From assembly GCA_942493215.1 (NCBI GenBank), contig OW818670.1, forward strand, positions 153,209-217,208: DNA of 64,000 nt, read 5' to 3'. Below the pieces are notes generated by a model. That model was not told the origin of the DNA. It saw only the letters and a list, made by a program, of their open reading frames with translations, and did no database searches. The position numbers and the translations under genes were made by a program. The DNA is from an uncultured Bacillota bacterium. Lineage in GTDB: Bacteria; Bacillota_I; Bacilli_A; RF39; UBA660. Below, one piece after another: positions 15,451-49,735 of this stretch (positions within the stretch are counted from its first letter, which is position 1; each line of letters starts with the position of its first letter).

Positions 15451-16926
15451 TTATAAAACAATAGCAAATAAATTGCCTGAACCTCTATTAACTAATTTAC
15501 ATAATGTTTGCTGCAATTTATGACGAGCGTTTTCTGGTGTTAATGATAATTTAGCTTGAATACCTTCTTTAACTATGACATCTAAACTACGACCAAATAT
15601 TTCGCTTTTCCATATATTAGCTGGATTAAGATCATAGTCTTTCATTAGATAATTAATTAATTCTTTACTTTGAATTTCTGATCCAATTATTGGTTCAAAA
15701 GTACTTTCAACATCAACTCTTATCATATGAATAGAAGGAGCAACTGCTTTAAGCTTAATACCATAACGACTACCTTGTCTAATAATCTCTGGCGTATCAA
15801 GTTTCATATCTAATAAAGTTGGTGAAGCTACGCCATAACCAGTTGCTTTAACCATTTTTAAAGCTCCTTTAATTTGATCATATTCATATTTAGCTTCATT
15901 ATAGTCTTGAAATAGCTTTAATAAGTCAGCTTTATTAGTAATATCGACATTAATTATTTCTTTTAACACCTGATTATATAATTCAACTGGTGCTTGTAAA
16001 TTAATTGTTACTTCACCACTAGAAGTATTAACATCAGATAAATAGGCTTTACTAATATATTCACAATCCGTAAAATGGGTCGTAATATCTTCAATATCTC
16101 TTAACTTATCAACACTAATAACACTTTCTTTAATTTTTGAAACATATACTTGTTTTAACCAGTTATTAGGGGCTAAACAAGCAATCCATTCTGGCATATT
16201 AACATTTACTTCTAAAACAGGGAATTCATATAATGCCTCTCTTAAAATATTATAAATGTCTTTTTCAATCATTGTTTCGACACTAATTGGTAAAACCGGA
16301 ACATCATAAGTAATATGAAGTTTTTCGGCTAATCGTTCAGTATCTGGTAACATTGGATGCGTTGAATTTAAAATAACAATAAATGGTTTACCAATATCTT
16401 TTAATTCACTTATAACTCTTGTTTCGGCTTCGACATAATCGTTACGATTTAACTCACCAATAGAACCATCAGTCGTAATAACAATACCAATTGATGAATG
16501 ATCACGAATAACTTTTTCGGTACCAATTTCAGCTGCTTCAATAAAGGGTATTTCTTCATCAAACCATGGTGTTTTTACCATTCTAGGACCATTTTCATCT
16601 TCATAACCTTTACAGTTAGGTATGACATACCCCACACAATCAACTAGTCTAATATTAGCGTAAAAATCATCTATCTTAACCTTAGCAGCATGACTAGGAA
16701 CAAACTTTGGTTCCGTCGTCATAATCATTTTTCCTTGCGCACTTTGAGGTATCTCATCTAAGGCTCTTTTTCGTTCATATTCATCTTCAATATTAGGAAC
16801 AACTAAATTCTCAATGAATTTCTTTATAAATGTTGATTTACCCGTTCTAACAGCTCCTACAACCCCTAAATATATATCGCCACCGGTACGCTCAGTAATA
16901 CTTTTGATAATATCAATTTTTTCCAT
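15451..16926 (-). CDS. spoIVA: Stage IV sporulation protein A (spore coat basement-layer ATPase)
   Basis: 491 aa with an N-terminal Walker A (GVVGAVRTGKSTFIKKF) and a highly conserved SpoIVA body. SD AGGGG precedes the ATG. Confidence 0.92.
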   Translation of the reverse strand: MEKIDIIKSITERTGGDIYLGVVGAVRTGKSTFIKKFIENLVVPNIEDEYERKRALDEIPQSAQGKMIMTTEPKFVPSHAAKVKIDDFYANIRLVDCVGYVIPNCKGYEDENGPRMVKTPWFDEEIPFIEAAEIGTEKVIRDHSSIGIVITTDGSIGELNRNDYVEAETRVISELKDIGKPFIVILNSTHPMLPDTERLAEKLHITYDVPVLPISVETMIEKDIYNILREALYEFPVLEVNVNMPEWIACLAPNNWLKQVYVSKIKESVISVDKLRDIEDITTHFTDCEYISKAYLSDVNTSSGEVTINLQAPVELYNQVLKEIINVDITNKADLLKLFQDYNEAKYEYDQIKGALKMVKATGYGVASPTLLDMKLDTPEIIRQGSRYGIKLKAVAPSIHMIRVDVESTFEPIIGSEIQSKELINYLMKDYDLNPANIWKSEIFGRSLDVIVKEGIQAKLSLTPENARHKLQQTLCKLVNRGSGNLFAIVL

Positions 16927-17052
16927 ATAACCCCTACTTTCCTCTAATTCATTAAAATATATGAGAAAAATAAGTAATATATGATAAATTGTTAATAAAT
17001 ACTATAAATTATGTGTATTTATTGTCTTTCTTTTGGAAATAAATCCTCCTAA

Positions 17053-18636
17053 ATGTATATTTTTACCAATTGTACTAATAATATTAATGATTTTTATGGG
17101 GGTGATAATATTTTTTTTAATAGAAATAAGACTGTTCAAAAAAAAGTTGATGAAATCAATAAGTCTTTAGAAAATTATTGTGTTTCTAAAGATTTAGAAC
17201 TTAATATAACAGTTATGAACAAACTATTTCAAGATGATGATACTATTATCCCTCGCAACATTATTAATAATAACCATTCATATAAATATTGTTTATTTTA
17301 TTGTAATGGTATGGTTGATCAAATAATACTTAATGAGAATATTATTAAACCCCTAATGTTATCTGATATTACTATCCCTGAAGAAAATTTTATTGATGTC
17401 CTAACAAATAATGTTTTACTAATTAATGAAGTCAAAAAAACTAATAATATGAAACAAGTTATTGAAAATGTTACTTATGGTGATACAATTTTATTTATTG
17501 ATAAATTTGATTATGCTCTTATTTTAAGCACTAAAAATTTTAAAATACGAGATATTAATGAACCGGAAAACGAAAAAATATTATCTGGTCCTCATGAGGG
17601 TTTCAATGAATCAATTTTTTCAAATCTTTCCTTAATCCATCGTAAATTACGTACTAATAATTTAAAAATTAAGTATCTTAAAATTGGTGAGGAAAGTAAT
17701 ACAATGGTTTGTATTTGTTATTTAGATAATATTGTCAATAAAAAGATTCTTAACGAATTATATATACGCCTTAATAAAATTAAAATTGATGGCATTTTAG
17801 ATTCTCATTATATAAATGAAATAATCAAAGATGCCCCCTTTTCCTTATTCCGTACAACTGGTTCTACAGAAAGACCAGATGCTGTTATCGGTAAGATGTT
17901 AGAAGGACGAATTGCCATAATGGTTGATGGAACACCAACCGTATTAACTGTACCCTACCTATTCATTGAAAACTTTCAAAGTAGTGAAGATTACTATATG
18001 AACTTTTATTATACTAGTTTTACACGCTTTACTCGTATTTTGGGCTTTATACTTACGATTATGATTCCAGCTTTTTATGTTTCTATTGTTGCTTATCATC
18101 AGGAGATGTTGCCTACTAATCTCTTTATTAACATTGCTATGGAACGGCAAAATGCCCCCTTACCAGCCGCTTTAGAATGTTTTATTATGTTAATTGTTTT
18201 TGATATATTAAAAGAAACAGGTATTCGAATGCCATCTAATATTGGCCAAGCTTTAAGCATTGTTGGAGCTTTAGTTATTGGTCAATCAGCTGTTGAAGCT
18301 AAATTAGTAGCCGCACCTATGATTATTGTTGTAGCTAGTACGGGTATTACTAGTTTATTGGTTCCTAAATTAAGTTCACCCGTAATATTTGTTCGTTTCA
18401 TTTTATTAGCATTAGCAAGCGTTTTAGGATTTTATGGGTTACTGCTTGGAATATCATGGGTAATTATTAACATTCTTAATTTGCGTTCGTTTGGAGTCCC
18501 CGAAATAACAATTTCCGGCAATATTACAATGCAAAATATTAAAGACCAAATTGTAAGAACTTCTTGGAAAAATATGCATATGCGACCAAAGTTTATTACT
18601 AATAATCGTCAAAGGATGAATAATAATGAAAACTAA
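17053..18636 (+). CDS. Spore germination protein, GerA family A subunit
   Basis: GerAA-family signature (GRIAIMVDGTPTVLTVP...DYY...) with a C-terminal multi-TM domain. The start codon is uncertain because there is no SD at 17053. The next in-frame ATG is 17218. Confidence 0.8.
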   Translation: MYIFTNCTNNINDFYGGDNIFFNRNKTVQKKVDEINKSLENYCVSKDLELNITVMNKLFQDDDTIIPRNIINNNHSYKYCLFYCNGMVDQIILNENIIKPLMLSDITIPEENFIDVLTNNVLLINEVKKTNNMKQVIENVTYGDTILFIDKFDYALILSTKNFKIRDINEPENEKILSGPHEGFNESIFSNLSLIHRKLRTNNLKIKYLKIGEESNTMVCICYLDNIVNKKILNELYIRLNKIKIDGILDSHYINEIIKDAPFSLFRTTGSTERPDAVIGKMLEGRIAIMVDGTPTVLTVPYLFIENFQSSEDYYMNFYYTSFTRFTRILGFILTIMIPAFYVSIVAYHQEMLPTNLFINIAMERQNAPLPAALECFIMLIVFDILKETGIRMPSNIGQALSIVGALVIGQSAVEAKLVAAPMIIVVASTGITSLLVPKLSSPVIFVRFILLALASVLGFYGLLLGISWVIINILNLRSFGVPEITISGNITMQNIKDQIVRTSWKNMHMRPKFITNNRQRMNNNEN

Positions 18637-19765
18637 AAAAAGATTACTTATCTTGACTCTTATTTTGGGATCATTTATTTTAACGGGATGTTGGAACTAT
18701 GTTGGTCTAAACGAAATGACTATTGTTACAGGATTTGCTATTGATAAAACAAAGGATAACAAATATTATCATACCACTTTTGAAATAGTTGATATGGTTA
18801 AATCAAATAAGCAAGAAGGGATAAAAACCAAAATAATCGAGTCTGATGGAGAAACCCTTTTCCAAGCTATTCGTAATGCTAAAAAAAGAATTACCAATAA
18901 ATTATATTTTGCTAATGCTCAAATTATAATAATCAATGAAAATATTGCCAAAAACGAAGGAATTAATAATATCATTAATTGGTTTTTAAGAGATGCTGAA
19001 GTCCGAGAAACAATGAATGTTATAATAGCTAAAAATAGTAGTGCAAAAGACATTATTAATATAAAGGGATTAGGAAATTCTATTACTTCCTATGAAATAA
19101 ATGGGATAATAAAAAGAGATAGTGATGTAACATCATCAACATATGATACCCAATTATATAATACCTATAATGTTCTTAATGGTTATGGTTTATCACTTGT
19201 TCTACCCGCTCTTCATATCGTTAATAATGATGATGAAAAAGTCGTTGAAGCAGACGGTATTGCTATTTTTGATAAAGATAAATTAATTGGGTATTTAAAT
19301 GCTACTCAAGTTGAACCCTACCTTTTTGCGGTTGGTAAATCCCGTGGTGGTATTATCGCTATAAGTGATAATACCAATAAAAAACCCGATATCTCTTTAG
19401 AAATATCCGAAGTTAATGAAAAAAAATCTTATACTTACAATAAAAAAAAAATTGAATTCAAAATTGACTTAGAAATAAAAGTTTATTTAGGTGAATATAT
19501 GAGCCAAAAAAAAGTTTTGACAGAAAAACAAATTGCCGAACTAGAAATTCAAGCCAACAAACAAATAAATAAAGAAGTTGGAAACGTTATTAATAAAATC
19601 CAAACCGAATTTGGTGCTGATATTCTTGGTTTTGGTCAATACATTTATAAACATAATCCTAATTTATATAAAGATTTAAATAAAGATTGGAAAAATTATT
19701 TTAAAAATACTGAAGTAAACGTTAATAGTAAGGTTACTATTGTTAACACAGCATTTATGAAATAA
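18626..19765 (+). CDS. Spore germination protein, GerA family C subunit (lipoprotein)
   Basis: Lipobox LTGC at the N-terminus. GerAC-like length. Operon position after the A subunit. Confidence 0.78.
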   Translation: MKTKKRLLILTLILGSFILTGCWNYVGLNEMTIVTGFAIDKTKDNKYYHTTFEIVDMVKSNKQEGIKTKIIESDGETLFQAIRNAKKRITNKLYFANAQIIIINENIAKNEGINNIINWFLRDAEVRETMNVIIAKNSSAKDIINIKGLGNSITSYEINGIIKRDSDVTSSTYDTQLYNTYNVLNGYGLSLVLPALHIVNNDDEKVVEADGIAIFDKDKLIGYLNATQVEPYLFAVGKSRGGIIAISDNTNKKPDISLEISEVNEKKSYTYNKKKIEFKIDLEIKVYLGEYMSQKKVLTEKQIAELEIQANKQINKEVGNVINKIQTEFGADILGFGQYIYKHNPNLYKDLNKDWKNYFKNTEVNVNSKVTIVNTAFMK

Positions 19766-19776
19766 TGGAGTGATAT

Positions 19777-19986
19777 ATGGAAATAATTATTCTTGTTGTA
19801 GTTTATATGTTTATTATTATAAGTGAATTATTGCCTCTAATTAAAAAAAGAAGAACCAAAGAGGTATGGGTATATGTTGGTGGTCTAATAGTTAGTTTTA
19901 TTATTCTTTTATTGTTTAGTTTAGAAGTAAAAATACCAAGCCCCACTACTTTAATAAAATCCATAGTAAAAATTTTTATTAGTTAA
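19777..19986 (+). CDS. Small two-TM protein, germinant-receptor D-subunit-like
   Basis: 69 aa with two hydrophobic helices, sitting between the C and B subunit genes. Such D genes occur in a subset of gerA-type operons. Confidence 0.4.
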   Translation: MEIIILVVVYMFIIISELLPLIKKRRTKEVWVYVGGLIVSFIILLLFSLEVKIPSPTTLIKSIVKIFIS

Positions 19987-19990
19987 AGAG

Positions 19991-21094
19991 ATGATGAAAA
20001 TGCAAAAAGAAATAATATCCTCTAAACAAGCTACCGCTATTCTTATTATGTTTTTATTTGGTAGTAGTGTTGTTTTAGGTGTTAATTCTGAATTATGTCA
20101 GGATACATGGTTAGCCTTATTTACATCAGTGTTAATGTTTATTCCTCTTATCTTTATTTATTCTAGAGTAATCAAACTCTTTCCCGAAAAAGATATTTTT
20201 ATTATTATTGATAACTTATTTGGTAAATTCTTTGGAAAAATTATTATCGTATTAATTAGTTGGTATGCCCTACACCTAGGATCTCTTGTATTAAGAGATT
20301 TTTCAGAATTCATTCAAGTTGTATCTATGAATGAAACACCAGAAATTATTCTAATGATTGCTATGATTGCCATTATTATTTATCTTGCCAAAAGTGGTAT
20401 TGAAACATTAGGAAGATGGTCTATTACTATTTTCTTTATTATTATTACCTTTGTTATTATTACTTTAATATTTTCAGGTAGCAAACTTGATTTTAATAAC
20501 TTATTACCTATATTTAATCATTCTCCTAAAGAAGTATTAACTTCAGCTTATAGCATTCTTTCTTTCCCCTTTGCCGAAACAGTAGTATTTATTACTCTAG
20601 CTGGAGCCATCAAGAAAAAAGATAGTCCCTATAAAATTTATTTATTTGCTAGCTTAATAGCTTTAATAATTTTTACTATTATTGTAACAAGAAATATGGC
20701 TGTTGCTGGGGCACCGACTATAAAAATAGCTGCATTCCCATCCTACACTTCCGCTCGCTTAATTGGTATAGGTGATTTTTTAACCCGCATTGAAGGTAGT
20801 GTTACCATTAACTTCATTCTAGCCGGTATAACCAAAATAACTGTTTGTCTTATGGCTGCTACCAAAGGAATATCCCACCTATTTAAAATAAATAATTATC
20901 GTACATTAGTAACACCAACCGGCTTATTAATGGTAGCTCTATCTACTATTCTTTATTCTAATATAACCCAAATGTTTAATTTTCTCCCTACTTATTCAAT
21001 ATACGCTATACCATTTCAAATAATTATTCCCATTATAATTTGGATTACCGCCGAAATAAAAAAGAAAAATTATTTAAGACCAATAAAAAACTGA
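19991..21094 (+). CDS. Spore germination protein, GerA family B subunit (APC-superfamily permease-like)
   Basis: 367 aa polytopic membrane protein with GerAB-like features. Confidence 0.82.
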   Translation: MMKMQKEIISSKQATAILIMFLFGSSVVLGVNSELCQDTWLALFTSVLMFIPLIFIYSRVIKLFPEKDIFIIIDNLFGKFFGKIIIVLISWYALHLGSLVLRDFSEFIQVVSMNETPEIILMIAMIAIIIYLAKSGIETLGRWSITIFFIIITFVIITLIFSGSKLDFNNLLPIFNHSPKEVLTSAYSILSFPFAETVVFITLAGAIKKKDSPYKIYLFASLIALIIFTIIVTRNMAVAGAPTIKIAAFPSYTSARLIGIGDFLTRIEGSVTINFILAGITKITVCLMAATKGISHLFKINNYRTLVTPTGLLMVALSTILYSNITQMFNFLPTYSIYAIPFQIIIPIIIWITAEIKKKNYLRPIKN

Positions 21095-32124: not shown

Positions 32125-32390
32125 CTAGCATTAAAAAAACAGCAATTCAAAATCCCTTGCAGGGACGAATTACTGTTGTATCCGCGGTACCACCCTAATT
32201 ATCATTATTCATGATCTACTTAATTCTAACAAATCTAGTAATATGATAACGGATTACATTCCGACTTACACTACTAACCTCTTCGTATAAGTAACTCAGG
32301 AGCGTTTTTCATTAATATCTTATTGTTAGCTTCCACCTATTCTAACTCGCTTTAAATAAAAATATCATTACTCTTTCCTTCGCAGTCGTT
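32125..32390 (-). promoter_or_regulatory. T-box riboswitch leader of the gatCAB-aspS operon
   Basis: Minus-strand transcript from a TTGACA-17-TATAAT promoter (32425..32397). It carries a stem I start with a GA/AGAGUA kink-turn motif (GCGAAGGAAAGAGTAATGA). It carries the conserved T-box sequence AATTAGGGTGGTACCGCGG (32196..32178). It ends in a terminator helix (ACAGTAATTCGTCCC/GGGATTTTGAATTGCTGT) plus a U-run that overlaps the antiterminator. A candidate specifier is GAA-AAC-G (Asn) in ATGAAAAACGC. Confidence 0.8.
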
Positions 32391-32459
32391 AAAAGCATTA
32401 TAGAGTAATTTCCATAATATGTCAAGTATATATTTTTAGTATTAATATTATAGTTACTT

Positions 32460-33170
32460 TTATCCTACTAATTGCTTTTGTTTATCTTTAATAGGAATTT
32501 TATAAAAAAGCCGTCTACTTAAAAAAGACCGCAATTTTATTCTAGCCATTATAAGATTCTTTGAAACAGTACTTTGGTGAGTATTAAGCATTTCAGCAAT
32601 TTCTCTTGTCTTAAAACTTTGCTGATTAAAAAGACCGTAAAAAAGAATTATAATATTTTTTTCCAATTCATTTAAAATAAATAAAGAGGCTTCAATATCA
32701 CTACCTGTTACTTGTTCAATATAATCATTTTCAACATTCTGACCAGTATCTAGTGCTCGTAGTAGTGAAAAATCATCATCTTCATTATTATTATCTAAAG
32801 TGGCTTCTAAACTCATATCGTATGACTTAACTCTAGATAATTGATTTTTAATTACATGTCTAATACATGGTTTTAAATAAGATCTAAAGGTTATTCCTAT
32901 CTCAAAATCAAAGTTTTCAATAGCTCTAACGATAGCAAATACCCCTTCACTAACCAAATCCTCATCACTTACCGTGGCATTATTATCATATCCAAAATAA
33001 GTATGTATCAAAGTTGTTATTATTCTTATATTATGCACTATTAATATATTTCTAGCATTTAGATCACCATTTTTTGCTAAATAAAGATATTTTATGGTAT
33101 CTTCCTCGGAAAGTAATGGTGGTAAATCAAGGCCATCAAAAACATAATTTATTTTTCTATTAGAATACAT
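32460..33170 (-). CDS. RNA polymerase sigma factor, SigK/SigE-like sporulation family (divergent paralog)
   Basis: Region 2 (LSEEDTIKYLYLAKNGDLNARNILIVHNIRII...DLVSEGVFAIVRAIENFDFEIGITFRSYLKPCIRHVIKN) and region 4 HTH (REIAEMLNTHQSTVSKNLIMARIKL). 236 aa with no pro-sequence. Confidence 0.75.
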   Translation of the reverse strand: MYSNRKINYVFDGLDLPPLLSEEDTIKYLYLAKNGDLNARNILIVHNIRIITTLIHTYFGYDNNATVSDEDLVSEGVFAIVRAIENFDFEIGITFRSYLKPCIRHVIKNQLSRVKSYDMSLEATLDNNNEDDDFSLLRALDTGQNVENDYIEQVTGSDIEASLFILNELEKNIIILFYGLFNQQSFKTREIAEMLNTHQSTVSKNLIMARIKLRSFLSRRLFYKIPIKDKQKQLVG

Positions 33171-33330
33171 ACAGCATACTTCCTCTTCTTGTTTTTCTAA
33201 TTTTATTGATAATAAAAGTTAATAGTTGGTTATTATAGCACAAAATTAGCATTTTATCCAACAAATTATATAATTAATTATGCCTATATTCTTAATATAA
33301 AAAAATTATGTAAGTTATTAGCTTACATAA

Positions 33331-34455
33331 TTAAATACTTTTACCAATAGTTCTCTTTTTTAAAAGATGATTACTTATACATTTTGTTGTAATAATAGTT
33401 CTTTGAGTTCTAAAACACCAGTTGTCACCATCATCAAAAACATCTATCTTTGCGTAAAAAGGTTCAAGAAAAAACTGTCCCTTCATTTCATTTGGCTCAA
33501 TGTAAGCTATACCAAAGAAACTGTGGTTTGATCCATCACGAGCTGGTCTTTCAATTAATGCCATTTCTTTATCTGCTACTAAAGTAATATTTTTATATTT
33601 TGCCGGTATAATGTTATCTAAAGTAGCTCTTCCTTGCAAATCTAACACTAATCTTGATAAACCACAAGTATTTTCATCATTTGCTAATTTATGTTTTATG
33701 AGATTATTTTCATAAATAATAAATTCGGAGAAAATATCTCCAATATTCATAGTGTTTGGTGTAACAACTAATGGTCTTATCTCTCCATCGATTTTTTTAA
33801 ATAAACAAATAATTATGATTTGATTATCAACAACTAATAATCTAACCGAATAATTAATTAAATATGTAGTATTATCATTAAATAGTATTCTTCCATAAGT
33901 ATCTATAACTACCAATTGAGCTAATTCTTCATTAATTTTCTTCCAACCTATATAAATATTTGCCGTTTTATCATATTCTAATAAGTCCAGTCTTAAAGTA
34001 GCTATCTTAGCATTATTAGAATCAAAAATATCTTGCTTACCATTTGCATCAATTCCAATTGGTATGATTAAATGATTTTTACCTTTAGCAACACAAATAT
34101 CATCATATTCTTTTGAAGAATAAGAAATTTTTGGTTCATTAGTTAGATTACAAATAACTAATCTAAATCCCATGTGCTCATTTGTTTTTTTCCCAACCTT
34201 AAATCGTAAATATAAAGGATAACCCTGCTCAATAGGTAATAACTCAACAGTGTCACACTTTATTTTAAATAAGCATTTCTTTTGAAAATAAACCAACTTT
34301 ATAGTTTGTCCATCTACTACTCTAGTTTCAACATAGTATTTCACTATCATACCACTATGAAAAGCACATTTTTTTTCTTCTATTTGACGAATTATTTTTT
34401 CTTTAGTAATTGGCTCAAAACTAATTGATTCTTCAGTGTAATTTTTTACTTCCAT
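33331..34455 (-). CDS. Hypothetical soluble protein (374 aa) between the two sigma-factor genes
   Basis: ORF with no TM segment and no recognisable motif. Same strand as both sigma genes and positioned between them. Confidence 0.5.
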   Translation of the reverse strand: MEVKNYTEESISFEPITKEKIIRQIEEKKCAFHSGMIVKYYVETRVVDGQTIKLVYFQKKCLFKIKCDTVELLPIEQGYPLYLRFKVGKKTNEHMGFRLVICNLTNEPKISYSSKEYDDICVAKGKNHLIIPIGIDANGKQDIFDSNNAKIATLRLDLLEYDKTANIYIGWKKINEELAQLVVIDTYGRILFNDNTTYLINYSVRLLVVDNQIIIICLFKKIDGEIRPLVVTPNTMNIGDIFSEFIIYENNLIKHKLANDENTCGLSRLVLDLQGRATLDNIIPAKYKNITLVADKEMALIERPARDGSNHSFFGIAYIEPNEMKGQFFLEPFYAKIDVFDDGDNWCFRTQRTIITTKCISNHLLKKRTIGKSI

Positions 34456-34582
34456 AAACCACCAACTTTATTATATCTTAATACCGAGTTGATAACTTTT
34501 TAATCATTTGTTTCTTCAATGAGAATAATAACACTAACATATCTGAAAGTCAATATAAGTTATATTAATAAAAGATTGCTAT

Positions 34583-35299
34583 CTAAACAACTTTTTGTTC
34601 ACAAACCTCTTTATCATTAACTTCTGATTTTCCATTATAACCAAGATGATTTTCCATCTTAAATAAATAATCCTTAATCTGTATTAAAGCTGAGGCCTCT
34701 ATTCTACTTACAGTTGATTGAGAACGATTCATTATAACGCCAATCTCTTTTTGAGATAATGGTTCATTATCTTCAAAACCATTACGCATACTAACAACCT
34801 GATGTTCTTTGGCAGTAAGAAAAAATAAAGCTTTTCTAATCTCCTCATATAATTCATATTCATTATAAGCCTCTTCAATATTACAATCATCACATAATGT
34901 ATCTAATAAAGATAATGCATTACCATTATAATAAACCATTTTATTTACACTAATGGTACGATGCCTTTTATTTTTTCTTAATTCCATAAATATTTCATTT
35001 TTTATACATGTCTTAGCATAAGAAACAAAATTAACTCCCCTGTCTAATTTAAAAGAATTTAATGCTTTAAACATTCCTAATATTCCAATACTAATTAAAT
35101 CATCCATATCAAGACCAGGAATAGGCTTAATTTTTAACTTCTCTACTACTAAGTTTATAACAAATAAAGTATAATGCTCTTTAAGTTTATTTCTAGCATA
35201 TTCATCACCAATACTAGCTAATTGAAAATAGTATTTTTTTTCAGCAGCTGATAATTGTTTTATTTCTTTACTATAATAATTAATACTATTTACTTTCAT
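34583..35299 (-). CDS. RNA polymerase sigma factor, SigK-like (SigE/SigK sporulation family)
   Basis: Strong similarity to B. subtilis SigK/SigE through regions 2-4 (LSAAEKKYYFQLASIGDEYARNKLKEHYTLFV...DLISIGILGMFKALNSF...FVSYAKTCIKNEI...SQKEIGVIMNRSQSTVSRIE). 238 aa. Confidence 0.8.
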   Translation of the reverse strand: MKVNSINYYSKEIKQLSAAEKKYYFQLASIGDEYARNKLKEHYTLFVINLVVEKLKIKPIPGLDMDDLISIGILGMFKALNSFKLDRGVNFVSYAKTCIKNEIFMELRKNKRHRTISVNKMVYYNGNALSLLDTLCDDCNIEEAYNEYELYEEIRKALFFLTAKEHQVVSMRNGFEDNEPLSQKEIGVIMNRSQSTVSRIEASALIQIKDYLFKMENHLGYNGKSEVNDKEVCEQKVV

Positions 35300-35675
35300 A
35301 CTTTTTCTCCCGTTGTTTTTGACTTTAATTTTAAATTAAAAAAGGTCCTAATTCATTAAAAGTGCTATTATTATAACACTAAAAAACAATAAATGAATAA
35401 TTTTTTCATTTATTGTGAAAAAATAATCATTAGATTATTTTTTAGCATACATTAGTATCAGTATATTTGTCTTCTATAATTTTAGGGTTATGGCCATTAA
35501 TTTTTGAATAAGCCATACAATAAGTTAAACCTAGTAATAAAACATTAGTTAAACATAAAAAGACGATTATTCCTCTTCTCATATATTTCTTTTTTTCATC
35601 TTCCATATTATCACTTCCTATATATAATTGTAGTATGTTTTAATTCAACATTTTTTATTCAAAAATTATATATTT

Positions 35676-42440: not shown

Positions 42441-43235
42441 TCATTTTTTCTTCTTCGCTTCAATTATATATGAAGCTACATAATCTTCAATGTTACCATC
42501 TGGTACCCACGAATTTATTATCTCTCTAGTATTATCTTTTGGATATAATTTTATATCAATAAAGCCTGACTCTTTAAGCATTACTTTAATGTTTTCTACA
42601 TACTCAGCTCCAGCAATACATCCAGACATCATTCTTAAATCTTGTTTAATTTTTTCTGGCAACTCAGCAGTAGCTACAACATCAGATATTGATAATCTAC
42701 CATCATTTTTTAATACTCTAAATGCTTCTTTAAATACTTTTTCTTTTTCCAAAGATAAGTTTATTACACAGTTTGATATAATTACATCTATTGATGAATC
42801 CTCTACAGGTAAATTCTCAATTTCGCCTAATCTGAATTGTACATTGTCATACTTTGACTTTATTGCATTTGCCCTTGAAAGTTTTATCATTTCAGGTGTC
42901 ATATCTACTCCAATAACTAATCCTGTTGAACCTACTTTTCTTCTTGCGAGGAAACAATCAAATCCACCACCACTACCAAGGTCTAAAACTGTTTCTCCTT
43001 CTTTAAGACTTGCTATTACAATGGGATTACCACATCCTAAACCCATATTGGATTCCGTTGGGACACTTGAAATATCGTTTTCATTGTATCCAATATTTTT
43101 AGATATTGATTCTATGTCTTGTTGTGTATCACCACAGCAACAGCCTCCACCACAACAGCCTTGAGCTTCTTTTTTTGCTATATTCGCATAATTATTACGA
43201 ATATGTTCTCTTAATTCTTCTTTACTTTCTTTCAT
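42441..43235 (-). CDS. arsM: Arsenite S-adenosylmethionine methyltransferase
   Basis: N-terminal Cys cluster (GCCGGGCCCG), SAM-binding motif VLDLGSGGGFDCF and conserved catalytic Cys residues (ISNCVINLS, MSGCIAG). The start is ATG 43235, after AAGGAG. Confidence 0.8.
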   Translation of the reverse strand: MKESKEELREHIRNNYANIAKKEAQGCCGGGCCCGDTQQDIESISKNIGYNENDISSVPTESNMGLGCGNPIVIASLKEGETVLDLGSGGGFDCFLARRKVGSTGLVIGVDMTPEMIKLSRANAIKSKYDNVQFRLGEIENLPVEDSSIDVIISNCVINLSLEKEKVFKEAFRVLKNDGRLSISDVVATAELPEKIKQDLRMMSGCIAGAEYVENIKVMLKESGFIDIKLYPKDNTREIINSWVPDGNIEDYVASYIIEAKKKK

Positions 43236-43280
43236 AATGTTCTCCTTTTTACTTATGAACACTAACATTCATTTATTAAT

Positions 43281-45020
43281 CTACAGTTCAATTAATTTAT
43301 CTCCCTTTATTTCTTCCGGATTCCAACTAATCACTGCAAAGTTTCCTTTAGAATGGGAATTTACTTTATTTATCCATTCTATTTCATTACTTGCCTTTGC
43401 TTTTAAAATCTTATTTGTAGTGCCAGTTTTATACAATGACGAATTTATAACCCACCACTTACTTGATATTCCGGCTCTTTTTAAATCTTCTTCTAATCTC
43501 ATTGCTTCAAATACAGGCGTTGTCTCAGCTAAGGTTACAATTATTACTTCTGTCTCATTTGCATTTCTTAATCGTGGAAGTAGTTTTTTTACTGATTCTG
43601 GTATATCACCATGAGACCTCTGTATTTCTTTATGATAACTTTGAGTAGAATCTAAAAGTAATAAAGTATGTCCGGTTGGTGCTGTATCAATAACTACAAC
43701 TTCTTCATCAGCTTTCTCTACAAGTTCAGCAAACCTTCTAAATACCGCTATTTCTTGTGTGCAGGGCGACTTCAAGTCTTCTTCTACATAAGCTATATCT
43801 TCGACTGACATTGTTTCTTTTGCCTTTGATAGAACTTCTTCTTTATATTTTTGGAGTTCTTCGTGTTCATCAATATGGCTTATAGTAATTAAACTATAAT
43901 TCTTCATAAGCAAATTTAAATGATTGGCTGGGTCAGTTGTGGTGAGATGTACTTTTTGACCTTTATTAGCTAATCCTAAGGCAATGGCACAGGCTACTGT
44001 AGTTTTTCCTACTCCACCTTTGCCCATCGTAAATATAACTTTTTTATGAGAATTATATATGTCATCTATTACATCATGCAAACTAAGTATATTTTCAGTT
44101 TGTAATGTCTCAACATTACTATCTAATATGTCATGTGTTAAAAATGCTCTCACATTATTTATTCCAGTAATATTATATGCTCTTAATGGAACTGCATATA
44201 TTTCCTTATCTTTTAATCCATTAGGCATACTGGCAAGAGCTTTTTGCTGCTTACGATATAATCCTTCTGAAATAGAATCATCAAATCCCTGTAATACCCC
44301 ATTTATAATCATAATTTGATTGTTTATGCCTAAATCAGAAAGTTCCTTTGATGCTCTTTCAGCTTCAATAAGAGGTGTTGAATCAGGTTTTGAAACAATA
44401 ATCAATGTTGTTTTTTCTTTATCAGCTAATGTATTTACCGCTTTTTTATATATCTCTTTTCTTTCTTCTAGCCCAGATAATTGACCAAGACAAGAAGCTC
44501 CATGAGTACTCTCACTAATAAAATTACTCCATGCTGATGGCAATTGTAACATTCTTAATGTATGTCCGGTTGGTGCTGTATCAAAAATAACATAATCATA
44601 TTCTTTTTCTATATTCTCATCTGCAATAAAATTAGAGAACTCATTGAAAGCAGCAATTTCTACTGTACATGAGCCTGATAATTGCTCTTCCATATTTTTA
44701 ATTACTACTTCAGGCAATTTGCCCCTATATGGTGCAATTACGCTTTCTCTATATTCTTCTGCTGACTTTAAGGGGTCAAGATTGATGACTGTTAAATTAT
44801 GTACACCTTTTATTTGAGTTTTCTTATTGCTTAATTCCATTTCAAATACATCTTGCAAATTAGAGGCAGGGTCAGTACTTATTAGCAAAACGCTTTTACC
44901 ACTATCGGCAATGCTTACAGCAGTTGCACAGGCAGTAGAAGTTTTACCAACGCCACCTTTACCAGTATAAAATAAATATTTTGTAAGCTTTATATTGTTA
45001 GGATTAAATGATTTATTCAT
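43281..45020 (-). CDS. arsA: Arsenical pump-driving ATPase ArsA (two-domain)
   Basis: Duplicated halves, each with a P-loop GKGGVGKT and DTAPTGHTL. ATG 45020 follows GGAGG and overlaps the arsD stop (TAATG). Confidence 0.92.
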   Translation of the reverse strand: MNKSFNPNNIKLTKYLFYTGKGGVGKTSTACATAVSIADSGKSVLLISTDPASNLQDVFEMELSNKKTQIKGVHNLTVINLDPLKSAEEYRESVIAPYRGKLPEVVIKNMEEQLSGSCTVEIAAFNEFSNFIADENIEKEYDYVIFDTAPTGHTLRMLQLPSAWSNFISESTHGASCLGQLSGLEERKEIYKKAVNTLADKEKTTLIIVSKPDSTPLIEAERASKELSDLGINNQIMIINGVLQGFDDSISEGLYRKQQKALASMPNGLKDKEIYAVPLRAYNITGINNVRAFLTHDILDSNVETLQTENILSLHDVIDDIYNSHKKVIFTMGKGGVGKTTVACAIALGLANKGQKVHLTTTDPANHLNLLMKNYSLITISHIDEHEELQKYKEEVLSKAKETMSVEDIAYVEEDLKSPCTQEIAVFRRFAELVEKADEEVVVIDTAPTGHTLLLLDSTQSYHKEIQRSHGDIPESVKKLLPRLRNANETEVIIVTLAETTPVFEAMRLEEDLKRAGISSKWWVINSSLYKTGTTNKILKAKASNEIEWINKVNSHSKGNFAVISWNPEEIKGDKLIEL

Positions 45021-45391
45021 TAACAACAGCCTCCGCCACCACAACATCCATTATTTTTTTTAGGCAATATTGTATTAGGCATATCAATTGTTACTCCTAA
45101 TAAGTTTAACATTTCTTCATTAGTAGGATATCTTCCTTCAATAACAATCTTTTCATCAACCATAATTATTGGAAATTTGTCTACACCATTTTTGTTTATA
45201 AATTCATTTACTTCTTTATTATTAACAAAAGCTTGAGGCGAACTAGATAAATTATATCTTTCTACTATAACTCCCATTTTACTTAAGCTGTTAATCACAG
45301 CTGATATTCTTATTAATTCAGGGTCAACACCTACTCCACATAAACCAGTAGAACAGCACATAGCTGGCTCAAATATTTTCATTTTTTTCAT
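45020..45391 (-). CDS. arsD: Arsenic metallochaperone/repressor ArsD
   Basis: MKIFEPAMCCSTGLCG N-terminus with Cys12/13/18. C-terminal Cys-rich tail NGCCGGGGCC. Translationally coupled to arsA. Confidence 0.85.
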   Translation of the reverse strand: MKKMKIFEPAMCCSTGLCGVGVDPELIRISAVINSLSKMGVIVERYNLSSSPQAFVNNKEVNEFINKNGVDKFPIIMVDEKIVIEGRYPTNEEMLNLLGVTIDMPNTILPKKNNGCCGGGGCC

Positions 45392-45461
45392 AACAAATCT
45401 CTCCTTTTTCATTTTTTTCATCTATATAATTAAAAGCATCAATATAATATGAGTTCATATA

Positions 45462-45764
45462 TTATTTGCAGATACAATCATCTTTTTCATTAGAAATATA
45501 TTGAATGAACTTATTTAATTCATCAATGGTATATTTATTTAAACTGTAATATACCCAGTTTATTTCCTTTCTTGCTATAACTAATTTAGCATCTATTAGA
45601 GTTTTCATATGATGTGAAAGTGTTGGTTGTGTTATATTGAGCTTCTCTAATATCCTACAAGCACACATTTCTCCACATGATAACATATCAATTATCTGCA
45701 ATCTATTATTATCTGACAGTGCCTTAAATATTAATACTTTTTTTTCATTATTCTTTTTATTCAT
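45462..45764 (-). CDS. arsR: ArsR-family arsenic-responsive repressor
   Basis: Metal-binding/HTH region LSCGEMCACRILEKLNITQPTLSHHMKTL. First gene of the cluster. Confidence 0.85.
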   Translation of the reverse strand: MNKKNNEKKVLIFKALSDNNRLQIIDMLSCGEMCACRILEKLNITQPTLSHHMKTLIDAKLVIARKEINWVYYSLNKYTIDELNKFIQYISNEKDDCICK

Positions 45765-47254: not shown

Positions 47255-47842
47255 TTATCCAATTATTCTTCGATACTGTCCTTCTTTTAATCTCTTAACG
47301 ACCATATCCATCGCATCTACCATTGGTATACTAGGATCCTCTAAACGGGTATACACTAATTGGTTAACAAGATTAATAAATCTATCATCTAAATCTACTA
47401 ATTTACTACTTACACCACTTTTTTGATTATACATTTCATATTTGCCTAAAATCGTAAGATGAGGTATATGATATAATAAATCATATGTATCATAAAAATC
47501 TTTTAGTTCACCATTTTCTCTAAGATATTTAATTTGATTAATAACCGTTAGAGGCGCTACTATTAATAAACCTAGATATCCCATATTAACAAACCCATCC
47601 TCGGTATTAATTGGATAATCATAATCTAAATTAGTAATAGCATAGTCTATTTCTGAAAATACGGATTGGGCTTTAGCAATAAAGTTTCCAGCCACTTCAG
47701 GAGTTACTCTTCTAAATTGATTAAGTACTCTTCTGTGAGCTAATACTTTTTCTTGATTGGGTGTTAAAGATAATTTAAAAAGTTTAGAAGTACATATTTG
47801 ACAATAATGTAGTTCTCCCTTTATTTGTTCATTCAACTTCAT
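47255..47842 (-). CDS. Hypothetical protein, paralog family member 1 (195 aa)
   Basis: Shares the C-terminal signature RFINLVNQLVYTRLEDPSIPMVDAMDMVVKRLK with the two upstream genes. Confidence 0.6.
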   Translation of the reverse strand: MKLNEQIKGELHYCQICTSKLFKLSLTPNQEKVLAHRRVLNQFRRVTPEVAGNFIAKAQSVFSEIDYAITNLDYDYPINTEDGFVNMGYLGLLIVAPLTVINQIKYLRENGELKDFYDTYDLLYHIPHLTILGKYEMYNQKSGVSSKLVDLDDRFINLVNQLVYTRLEDPSIPMVDAMDMVVKRLKEGQYRRIIG

Positions 47843-47869
47843 AACAACGCTGCTTTCTATTTTTATATA

Positions 47870-48439
47870 TTAATTTAATGTTGTAGGCTTTTTTTCTTTA
47901 CAAAATTTCTTGGGTATATTATTAATTATTCTAAACATTGCCTCTTCCATAGGCATATCAGGACTATCTAGACGTAATTGTACTAGTTCATTAACAATAT
48001 CATTGAACATAGGATTAAATGCTCTTAAATCAGAACTAATACCATCTGTACGCTCATTTGATAAATTATATTCATTAGTATCACAAGGAAAATATACATA
48101 TTTAGTGCCACAAAGACTCTTAAAGATATCTGCCAAAACGTCTTTATCGCCTCTTTTACACCTACTAATACCTTTACTTACTATTCCACCAAGTTCCGTA
48201 AGATATATTAATCCATGGGCTGTATCACAGCCATAATCATCTGGACAATGAAAACTAACATAAGAATATTTTGCATCAGCATTCACATCATCCAATGCTC
48301 TTTGAACTTCTATTATAAAATCGGCAGCTAAACCAGCATTAACATGTCTAAACTCTCTTAATATCTTTTTTTCTTTTAAATTTTTATGTCTACTTAATAA
48401 TTTAGCTTTTGATTCCTGATAATAATGCATTAAACCCAT
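47870..48439 (-). CDS. Hypothetical protein, paralog family member 2 (189 aa)
   Basis: C-terminal signature MFNDIVNELVQLRLDSPDMPMEEAMFRIINNI. Carries the N-terminal motif LSRHKNLKEKKILREFRHV...FIIEVQRAL shared with the family. Confidence 0.6.
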   Translation of the reverse strand: MGLMHYYQESKAKLLSRHKNLKEKKILREFRHVNAGLAADFIIEVQRALDDVNADAKYSYVSFHCPDDYGCDTAHGLIYLTELGGIVSKGISRCKRGDKDVLADIFKSLCGTKYVYFPCDTNEYNLSNERTDGISSDLRAFNPMFNDIVNELVQLRLDSPDMPMEEAMFRIINNIPKKFCKEKKPTTLN

Positions 48440-48447
48440 ATTATCAT

Positions 48448-49674
48448 CTATCCTTTCTTTGCTTCTGATAGAGTTCTAACTTTTAATGTCATTCGCTTCT
48501 TTAAAAGATCTATAGCTTTATTAAAAACCTCCTCCATAGATATATCTGGCTCATCTAAACAAATCTTTACTAAATCATTAAAGATTGTTTTAAATTCCAA
48601 ATTATGCATTAATAATTTCTGATTAAGTCCATTTTTTGTTGTATACATATCATAATAACAATCAGAATCAAAGCTAAAATAATCTACTCTTGATAGATTA
48701 AAAACCTGTTCATATACTTTACATTGATCACCTGGCTTGTAGTAAACGCCTTTACAAAAGCCTATATGATTAGCTGGAATTATATACTTCATAGACGAAA
48801 AAATGGTATTTATGTTTGATTTTGGATTAGCAATAGTTAAGTCTCTGGCTTCAAATTTCTCATCGGCTATAACTGATTTAGCATTAGCAATAAATTGTGC
48901 AACCATATCACAATCCATATTTTTAAATCTTTGTAATACTCTTATTTGTCTTAATTCTGCTTCTTGTTGTGGTGTCATATATAATCTTAATTTGTTTTTA
49001 ATAATTAATGATATATTATGTAAGAAATCATTATTATCAAATAATTCTACCTCATTACCAGTTATTTTTTCACCTGTTTTTAATTCGTTAATAACTAGTT
49101 TCATAGCAAAACCCATTGATATACTAGGTCTTTCTAATCTTACTTCAATTAAACGTTTAACTAGGTCTTCAAATCTTGCATCAAATTTTATTAATTGGGA
49201 ATTAATTTTACCATCATTATATAAGTTATAACCAAAATCAAAAATAAATTGAAAACCATTAATACGTTCTAAATAGTCATCTATTTGAGAAACATTTTCA
49301 AAATTTTTTCTATCTTTTTCATCTTGGTCAATTACAACATTTAGTTCACTTTTTCTATCAGCAGGAATAATAATTGTTTTTGTTAATGGCGTATTTATTA
49401 AGCCCTGATTATCATCATTTTTTGCTATTCCATAAGGAGTATAAAAAGCTTTATATCTCTTACCTTTATCACTTTTTTCTTGCTCAAAAAAATTTTTAGC
49501 TTCCACTATAAAATCGTTCATTAAATATGAATCAACAAATTGAAACTCACGTAAAATTATGGCTTTAGCTTTTCTTAATCCTTCGACCGATTTATCTTCT
49601 TGTGTAGGTATACCTAAAGTTCCTTTTATTTTTATCCCTAAATCAGATAAATTATACTTTTTTAAAATTTTCAT
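48448..49674 (-). CDS. Hypothetical protein, paralog family member 3 (408 aa; two tandem copies of the family domain)
   Basis: Two repeats. Each has the N-terminal RxLxxFxxVxxxxAxFI motif and a C-terminal FxDLVKxLIExRLExPxISMxxAM motif (RFEDLVKRLIEVRLERPSISMGFAMKLV and IFNDLVKICLDEPDISMEEVFNKAI). Own promoter (TTGACA-17-TATCAT) and SD. Confidence 0.6.
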   Translation of the reverse strand: MKILKKYNLSDLGIKIKGTLGIPTQEDKSVEGLRKAKAIILREFQFVDSYLMNDFIVEAKNFFEQEKSDKGKRYKAFYTPYGIAKNDDNQGLINTPLTKTIIIPADRKSELNVVIDQDEKDRKNFENVSQIDDYLERINGFQFIFDFGYNLYNDGKINSQLIKFDARFEDLVKRLIEVRLERPSISMGFAMKLVINELKTGEKITGNEVELFDNNDFLHNISLIIKNKLRLYMTPQQEAELRQIRVLQRFKNMDCDMVAQFIANAKSVIADEKFEARDLTIANPKSNINTIFSSMKYIIPANHIGFCKGVYYKPGDQCKVYEQVFNLSRVDYFSFDSDCYYDMYTTKNGLNQKLLMHNLEFKTIFNDLVKICLDEPDISMEEVFNKAIDLLKKRMTLKVRTLSEAKKG

Positions 49675-49699: not shown

Positions 49700-49735
49700 T
49701 AGTATATGATATATCTAATTCTGATTATTGTCAAT
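49700..49735 (-). terminator. Rho-independent terminator after ddl
   Basis: Minus strand: AAGATAAG-atatg-CTTATCTT followed by TTTTTT. Confidence 0.6.

Follow-up and report, generated by a model that had tools for sequence, protein, structure and literature searches.

Divergent pro-less mother-cell-type sigma factors flanking a lineage-restricted gene in an endospore-forming member of the reduced-genome gut Bacilli

In a 64-kb stretch of DNA from an uncultured Bacillota bacterium (contig OW818670.1; "the window" below means this whole stretch of 64,000 nucleotides), two genes for sigma-70 family factors of the SigE/SigK clade lie on either side of an uncharacterised gene, all three on the minus strand. 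In the direction of transcription these are sigma2 (34583..35299; 238 residues, leaning towards SigK), a gene for a soluble protein of 374 residues that we call the orphan (33331..34455), and sigma1 (32460..33170; 236 residues, highly diverged). We are confident that sigma1 and sigma2 are intact, pro-less sigma factors of this clade in a spore-former, and our preferred reading, to which we give a probability of roughly 0.45, is that they are the organism's own equivalents of SigK and SigE. The locus thus holds divergent pro-less mother-cell-type sigma factors and is not a new system. A preliminary description, made from the sequence alone, had singled it out as a duplicated late-sporulation sigma factor with a dedicated partner; its account of the gene layout stands, and the duplicate-and-partner picture that made the locus look unusual finds no support in our data.

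Two complete sigma factors of the SigE/SigK clade, both without a pro-sequence

Each of the three genes is the maximal open reading frame (ORF) at its position. Inspection of the ORFs showed that upstream extension of either sigma frame is impossible, and both frames are uninterrupted, full length and provided with ribosome-binding sites (GGGAG for sigma2). The composition of sigma1, the orphan and sigma2 is native, with GC contents of 0.26-0.27 overall and 0.14-0.15 at third codon positions, compared with means of 0.285 and 0.173 for the window, which as a whole is low-GC Firmicutes DNA (~28% GC). We also considered a sigK gene split by a skin element, in which fragments of the gene flank the SpoIVCA recombinase; as had been argued before, this explanation fails because both sigma factors are complete, with regions 2-4, and the gene between them does not encode a recombinase.

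All sigma regions of both proteins could be aligned with hmmalign, regions 2 and 4 included, as expected of the sigma-70 family. Against the Pfam models sigma2 scored 43.3 bits for Sigma70_r2 and 40.5 bits for Sigma70_r4, both over the cut-off, and sigma1 scored 38.8 bits for region 2; its region 4 reached just 16.6 bits (cut-off 24.1), yet was aligned across residues 166-214. Among the NCBIfam hidden Markov models (HMMs), SigK ranked first and SigE second for both proteins, at scores far under the cut-offs. The SigK models (TIGR02846/NF004471; cut-offs 298.65/252) gave 133.2/132.1 bits for sigma2 and 95.1/95.8 bits for sigma1, and the SigE models (TIGR02835/NF006158; cut-offs 339-349) gave 99 bits and 72-75 bits respectively, which amounts to 32-53% of the cut-offs for SigK and 21-29% for SigE. 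As controls, the SigE, SigK, SigF and SigG sequences of Bacillus subtilis each exceeded their own equivalog cut-off with 375-518 bits, and clostridial proteins from metagenome contigs scored 422-425 bits (SigE) and 355-388 bits (SigK); overall the controls ranged over 264-415 bits for SigK and 422-446 bits for SigE. PADLOC returned only a generic match to the sigma domain of MzaA.

Sequence identities tell a similar story. Measured against the same references, sigma2 shows 31.6% identity with SigK of B. subtilis and 29.7% with SigE, and sigma1 about 27% with each of them, giving an overall range of 26-32% for the pair. With its best database relatives at 36-38% identity only, the near motif-for-motif agreement of sigma2 with B. 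subtilis SigK that had been claimed earlier was overstated. Doubt also falls on the idea that the two genes are paralogous duplicates, since sigma1 and sigma2 (27-28% identity) are no closer to each other than either is to the SigE and SigK references. The closest matches of sigma2 were rejected as relatives within the lineage: they lie on contigs of 46-60% GC and must therefore stem from unrelated Clostridia. The sole database match of sigma1 is a 27%-identical sigma factor (P0068) on a phage-like contig. In the protein database sigma1, the orphan, sigma2 and the aspartyl-tRNA synthetase (AspRS) encoded downstream are all singletons, and a metagenome scan with a joint sigma1 and sigma2 profile recovered canonical Clostridium sigK/sigE/sigG clusters, FliA and SigA, and no member of a sigma1- or sigma2-like subfamily. 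One match of the sigma2 search (P0052, 229 residues; SigE 295 bits, SigK 280 bits) looks like the N-terminal half of a SigK, pro-sequence included, joined to the C-terminal half of a SigE; it either arose as a chimera in assembly or is a hybrid that exists in nature.

Both proteins begin where mature SigE and SigK begin, and both lack the hydrophobic pro-sequence of 20-27 residues that every SigK and SigE used as a reference carries, as seen in a sequence alignment and with hmmalign. Nor did a scan of the neighbouring genes reveal SpoIIGA, SpoIVFB or sigG near the locus, or any SpoIVFB-like gene within the window, in keeping with the earlier remark that neither a pro-sequence nor an adjacent processing protease was apparent. 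The N-terminus of sigma1, NYVFDGLDLPPLLS, is similar to that of mature SigE, and the N-terminal segment of sigma2, LSAAEKKYY..GDEYARNKL, is SigK-like. At 11 alignment positions that discriminate 2 SigE from 52 SigK sequences, sigma2 is K-like at six and E-like at one, and sigma1 is E-like at two and K-like at two.

Region 2.4 of sigma2, responsible for recognition of the -10 element, reads NEIFMELR, the conserved SigE/SigK segment. Within the region 4.2 motif GISRSYVSRIE, the position occupied by Arg in 49 of the 52 SigK sequences holds Gln in sigma1, in sigma2 and in both SigE sequences, so that neither protein follows SigK here; in B. subtilis genetics this residue discriminates between the -35 elements of SigK and SigE (the -35 'AC' specificity). 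In sigma1 the recognition helices of region 2.4 and region 4.2 are both altered. Sigma1 and sigma2 further share four extra residues between regions 2.1 and 2.2, which at first sight might be taken as proof of a recent duplication. A bona fide Clostridium SigK, however, has three extra residues in the same loop, and the shared insertion is therefore weak evidence for common descent. This loop was seen in SigK of contigs L009-L013 (~29% GC, up to 2.06 Mb), which carry the Clostridium-type layout sigK-pilT-ftsA-ftsZ-spoIIGA-sigE-sigG.

Our searches also brought up a pro-less SigE/K-like sigma factor of 236 residues (P0054/P0056) that, like the pair described here, stays under the family thresholds (SigK 128 bits, SigE 120 bits); its region 4.2 reads LNVSQPTVSRI, with a similar helix (SQPTVSR). 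It occurs alone on contigs of 21-24% GC (L021-L026), adjoining a type III restriction-modification system, and some copies have an IS30-type transposase inserted upstream. Possibly it forms one divergent subfamily together with sigma1 and sigma2.

A spore-forming host and the possible place of the sigma factors in it

The host is a gut bacterium with a small genome (~1.49 Mb, 28% GC), and its nearest genomes by GatA (66-68% identity) are gut metagenome-assembled genomes of 24-27% GC labelled 'uncultured Bacilli bacterium'. The window encodes SpoIVA (15451..16984, minus strand; TIGR02836, 709 bits against a cut-off of 460) behind a textbook sigE-type promoter, TCATATA-N14-CATATATT (16984..16956), 30 nucleotides before the ATG. 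The strict sigE-type motif was found four times on both strands of the window (1.2 expected), and only the one at spoIVA was found to precede a same-strand gene start by no more than 300 nucleotides. Divergent from spoIVA (15451..21094) is a gerA-type germinant receptor operon with members of the Ger(x)C and GerAB subfamilies and a third gene that is GerXA-like but below the cut-off (306.5 versus 850 bits). From the canonical SpoIVA and the gerA-type operon it follows that the host is an endospore-former, and we identify it as an endospore-forming member of the reduced-genome gut Bacilli. The reduced Bacilli orders RFN20, RF39 and ML615J-28 are described as fast-evolving and as a mixture of sporulators and non-sporulators, with ML615J-28 lacking spoIVFB (PMC10868615). 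Elsewhere in the window a loose sigE-like motif (49728..49701) lies 27 nucleotides upstream of the 408-residue member of three tandem paralogous genes (47255..49674, minus strand; 195, 189 and 408 residues, the last resembling a two-repeat fusion) that have no NCBIfam match; given this motif, they may encode lineage-specific sporulation proteins.

Both proteins are most likely made directly in their mature form, and if they are indeed the SigK and SigE equivalents of this organism they would be expressed in the mother cell. A pro-less start means that no cleavage of the SpoIIGA or SpoIVFB type can gate them, and their activity must then be set by the timing of transcription. Such transcription-only control would parallel that of the pro-less SigK of Clostridioides difficile, for which proteolytic activation is not needed (bioRxiv 10.1101/2022.02.25.481979). 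Sigma2 would be derived from SigK, with the -10 recognition segment kept and a SigE-type Gln in the -35 recognition helix, a combination with which it should read CATA-type promoters that have a SigE-like -35 element, for example that of spoIVA. Sigma1 would belong to the same clade but have diverged much further; its N-terminus is SigE-like and, given the changes in both of its recognition helices, it probably recognises a distinct set of promoters. The orphan may be co-transcribed with sigma2. We counted in favour of this reading the small genome, the loss of spoIVFB in related orders, the recognition segments of sigma2 and the SigE-like N-terminus of sigma1. All four sporulation sigma factors are, moreover, present in every spore-former studied (bioRxiv 10.1101/2022.02.25.481979).

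A bolder version of the same proposal holds that sigma1 and sigma2, as two rapidly evolved factors encoded close together, are the only mother-cell sigma factors of a minimal endospore-former and run its mother-cell programme, that both proteolytic checkpoints have been dispensed with, and that sigma2 has switched to SigE-type -35 recognition; this we think unlikely. The checkpoints concerned run from SpoIIR to SpoIIGA for pro-SigE and from SpoIVB to SpoIVFB for pro-SigK. Were the two proteins the sole SigE and SigK equivalents, the host would be a naturally occurring case in which spores form although SigE is not processed from a pro-form, something for which we know of no precedent (pro-less SigK being known in C. 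difficile), and it would help to establish how small the regulatory circuit for endospore formation can be in gut Bacilli with reduced genomes.

Several observations weigh against the two proteins being the host's own equivalents. The near-universal linkage of spoIIGA, sigE and sigG is found at neither sigma gene. SigE and SigK of B. subtilis are 44% identical to each other, more than the 26-32% that sigma1 and sigma2 share with them, and extra paralogues consequently fit at least as well as orthologues. The two factors attain only ~30-50% of the SigK cut-offs, as opposed to SpoIVA, which has a canonical promoter and stands at 154% of its own cut-off, and no orthologue above 38% identity was found among 5.8 billion proteins. 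The preliminary description had proposed placing both proteins in a phylogeny with SigE, SigK, SigG and SigF; our neighbour-joining tree leaves both unplaced. Its long branches cluster, every tested grouping with sigma2 has a bootstrap value of at most 0.3, and the only better-supported grouping is that of sigma1 with the phage-context factor P0068 (0.67), a lack of resolution that we ascribe to long-branch attraction. Finally, no sigE-, sigK-, sigF- or sigG-type motif and no Spo0A box, as derived from B. subtilis, was detected upstream of sigma1, the orphan or sigma2. What the consensus scan did return are SigA-type promoter-like sites on the minus strand, each with a TG extension: TTGACT-17-TATTAT in the spacer between sigma2 and the orphan (34525..34553) and TGGATA-17-TATAAT upstream of sigma1 (33232..33260). 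In such AT-rich DNA these sites are barely above chance (42 found versus 34.6 expected).

Much of this would also be expected if sigma1 and sigma2 were accessory paralogues, with a canonical sigE (accompanied by spoIIGA and sigG) and a canonical sigK elsewhere in the genome, and with the two factors described here running a side regulon, a sporulation sub-programme or something unrelated. We regard this as only somewhat less likely than our preferred reading. It accounts for the extreme divergence of both factors, far under the family cut-offs and without a place in the tree, next to highly conserved core sporulation parts such as SpoIVA and its canonical sigE-type promoter; it also agrees with the SigA-like appearance of the sigma promoters, with the absence of the spoIIGA-sigE-sigG linkage, and with the occurrence of the similar stand-alone, pro-less, sub-threshold factor (P0054/P0056) on low-GC contigs. 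On the other hand, two sigma factors beyond the usual complement would be a large number for a genome of 1.49 Mb, and sigma2 has retained the SigE/SigK -10 recognition segment. Related reduced Bacilli are also reported to be without spoIVFB (PMC10868615), from which exactly a pro-less SigK would be predicted. Should the accessory interpretation prove correct, what is gained is a small and poorly sampled subfamily of pro-less SigE/K-like sigma factors.

The orphan gene between the sigma genes

With 374 open codons in DNA of ~27% GC, the orphan ORF cannot be a chance event. No family match was obtained in Pfam, NCBIfam or PADLOC, and no membrane segment is predicted (maximum Kyte-Doolittle value of 1.53 over a 19-residue window). 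The protein is predicted to be mostly beta-strand and contains nine cysteines; AlphaFold2 models had predicted local distance difference test (pLDDT) values of 32 from the single sequence and 35 from a two-row alignment, both unusable. An initial impression of WG-type repeats was discarded, as these gave no Pfam match even at E <= 10 and the profile matches in the PDB were noise. A word-indexed search of 5.8 billion proteins returned the query itself only, and when 1.84 billion representatives were searched exhaustively with HMMER, a single homologue emerged, P0069 (295 residues, 26% identity, E = 1.4e-13).

The contig that carries P0069 (L008, 1..1906, 29.5% GC) allows the position of the orphan to be compared between genomes. 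There, metK with its S-adenosylmethionine (SAM) riboswitch is divergent from P0069, which has a promoter-like site and a terminator of its own. Beyond P0069 follow a 340-bp spacer devoid of ORFs, with a TGCTATAAT promoter-like site, and then a gatCAB-type promoter and T-box leader; this end of the contig is ~80% identical to the segment downstream of sigma1 and served as the anchor for comparing synteny. With tblastn no sigma gene could be traced on this contig, on either side of P0069, and its spacer shows no convincing homology to the upstream region of sigma1. The two relatives identified by GatA (66-68% identity) likewise have no sigma genes upstream of gatC.

These data bear directly on the proposal that the orphan is a dedicated anti-sigma factor, adaptor or co-factor of sigma2, of sigma1 or of both, a proposal we now consider improbable. 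The three genes share one strand, and no terminator-like fold was seen in the 127 nucleotides that separate sigma2 from the orphan (z = 0.19), so that co-transcription of the orphan with sigma2 is possible; a clear intrinsic terminator (33299..33332, minus strand; 11-bp stem and U7, folding free energy -9 kcal/mol, z = -3.7) follows the orphan, a layout typical of sigma/anti-sigma pairs. Against this, the orphan has a SigA-like promoter site of its own, matches no anti-sigma or other known family, and shows neither a recognisable anti-sigma domain nor a conserved adjacency to a sigma gene. Co-conservation, which the preliminary description had suggested examining across relatives, could not be demonstrated: the orphan lacks co-conservation with a sigma gene, the only relative that keeps it having a sigma gene on neither side. 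In that relative P0069 occupies the corresponding chromosomal position and neither sigma gene accompanies it, the reverse of what a dedicated sigma/partner module would lead one to expect. We conclude that the orphan is a lineage-restricted gene of this chromosomal position, upstream of the gatCAB T-box, and not a conserved partner of either sigma factor.

Neighbourhood of the locus and comparison with known systems

Upstream, sigma2 is isolated from a predicted 54-residue membrane ORF (35442..35606) by a terminator of tandem hairpins and a U-run (35375..35445, minus strand; RNA folding free energy -18.1 kcal/mol, z = -6.0), the ORF lying directly upstream of the sigma2 terminator and promoter region. 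At the other end, sigma1 stops 35 nucleotides before a perfect TTGACA-17-TATAAT promoter and the T-box leader of the gatCAB-aspS operon (32158..32425, minus strand; Rfam T-box, 117 bits). The 3' spacer of sigma1 is unstructured, and as no terminator intervenes (32397..32462), sigma1 transcripts would run into the T-box leader. Besides the 54-residue ORF and the T-box-controlled operon downstream, the genes around the locus comprise a GNAT-like gene, a thioredoxin, an ArsR, a PHP-domain gene, a GyrI-like gene, a metallophosphoesterase, and metK with a SAM riboswitch. An arsenic-resistance cluster (ArsM-like methyltransferase, ArsA, ArsD and ArsR) lies at 42441..45764.

We think it very improbable that a resident gene came to be flanked by inserted sigma genes of mobile or phage origin. 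Sporulation-like sigma factors encoded by phages have been described (bioRxiv 10.1101/2021.11.12.468384), the one relative of sigma1 in the database was found on a phage-like contig and groups with it in 67% of bootstraps, and the contig with P0069 is without both sigma genes at this site. However, no recombinase, integrase, transposase, repeat or phage gene was found near the locus, the composition of the genes is native, scans of viral contigs gave no matches, tblastn matches in the phage database were all under 30% identity, and the grouping with P0068 probably reflects long-branch attraction. Just as improbable is the possibility that sigma1 and sigma2 are non-functional copies undergoing decay while the lineage gives up or remodels sporulation. 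The extreme divergence, the sub-threshold region 4 of sigma1 and the repeated loss of sporulation in related orders (PMC10868615) would fit, but neither frame is interrupted or shortened and both have ribosome-binding sites, all sigma regions align, and the intact spoIVA and ger genes show that sporulation has been retained.

Compared with systems already described, the locus resembles sigma/anti-sigma operons such as SigI-RsgI and the extracytoplasmic function (ECF) pairs in that a sigma gene is followed by an uncharacterised gene on the same strand with no terminator between; it differs in that the orphan is soluble, matches no anti-sigma domain and has a homologue with no sigma gene beside it. 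The sporulation-like sigma factors of phages are likewise short, pro-less and divergent group-3 proteins that match the sporulation sigma models weakly, and P0068 is of this kind; sigma1 and sigma2, in contrast, have a chromosomal housekeeping context and native composition, and P0068 does not resemble SigK.

SigE ranks second among the HMM matches of both factors and shares with them the Gln at the -35 recognition position; the N-terminus of sigma1 is also SigE-like, and a SigA-like promoter of the sigma genes would fit an early, sigE-style expression. Sigma1 and sigma2 nonetheless differ from SigE in having no pro-sequence, no adjacent spoIIGA or sigG (the canonical cluster is seen in contig L010) and no Spo0A boxes. 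From SigK they are set apart by the Gln in region 4.2, where 49 of 52 SigK proteins have Arg, by scores below the cut-offs, by the four extra residues between regions 2.1 and 2.2, and by the lack of a skin element. SigK is characteristically expressed late in the mother cell from a sigE/SpoIIID- and sigK-dependent promoter; upstream of sigma1 and sigma2 no motif of the sigE or sigK type, as derived from B. subtilis, was found. SigK is, even so, the best HMM match of both, the N-terminal segment and 6 of the 11 discriminating positions of sigma2 are SigK-like, and the SigK of C. difficile shares with sigma1 and sigma2 the absence of a pro-sequence.

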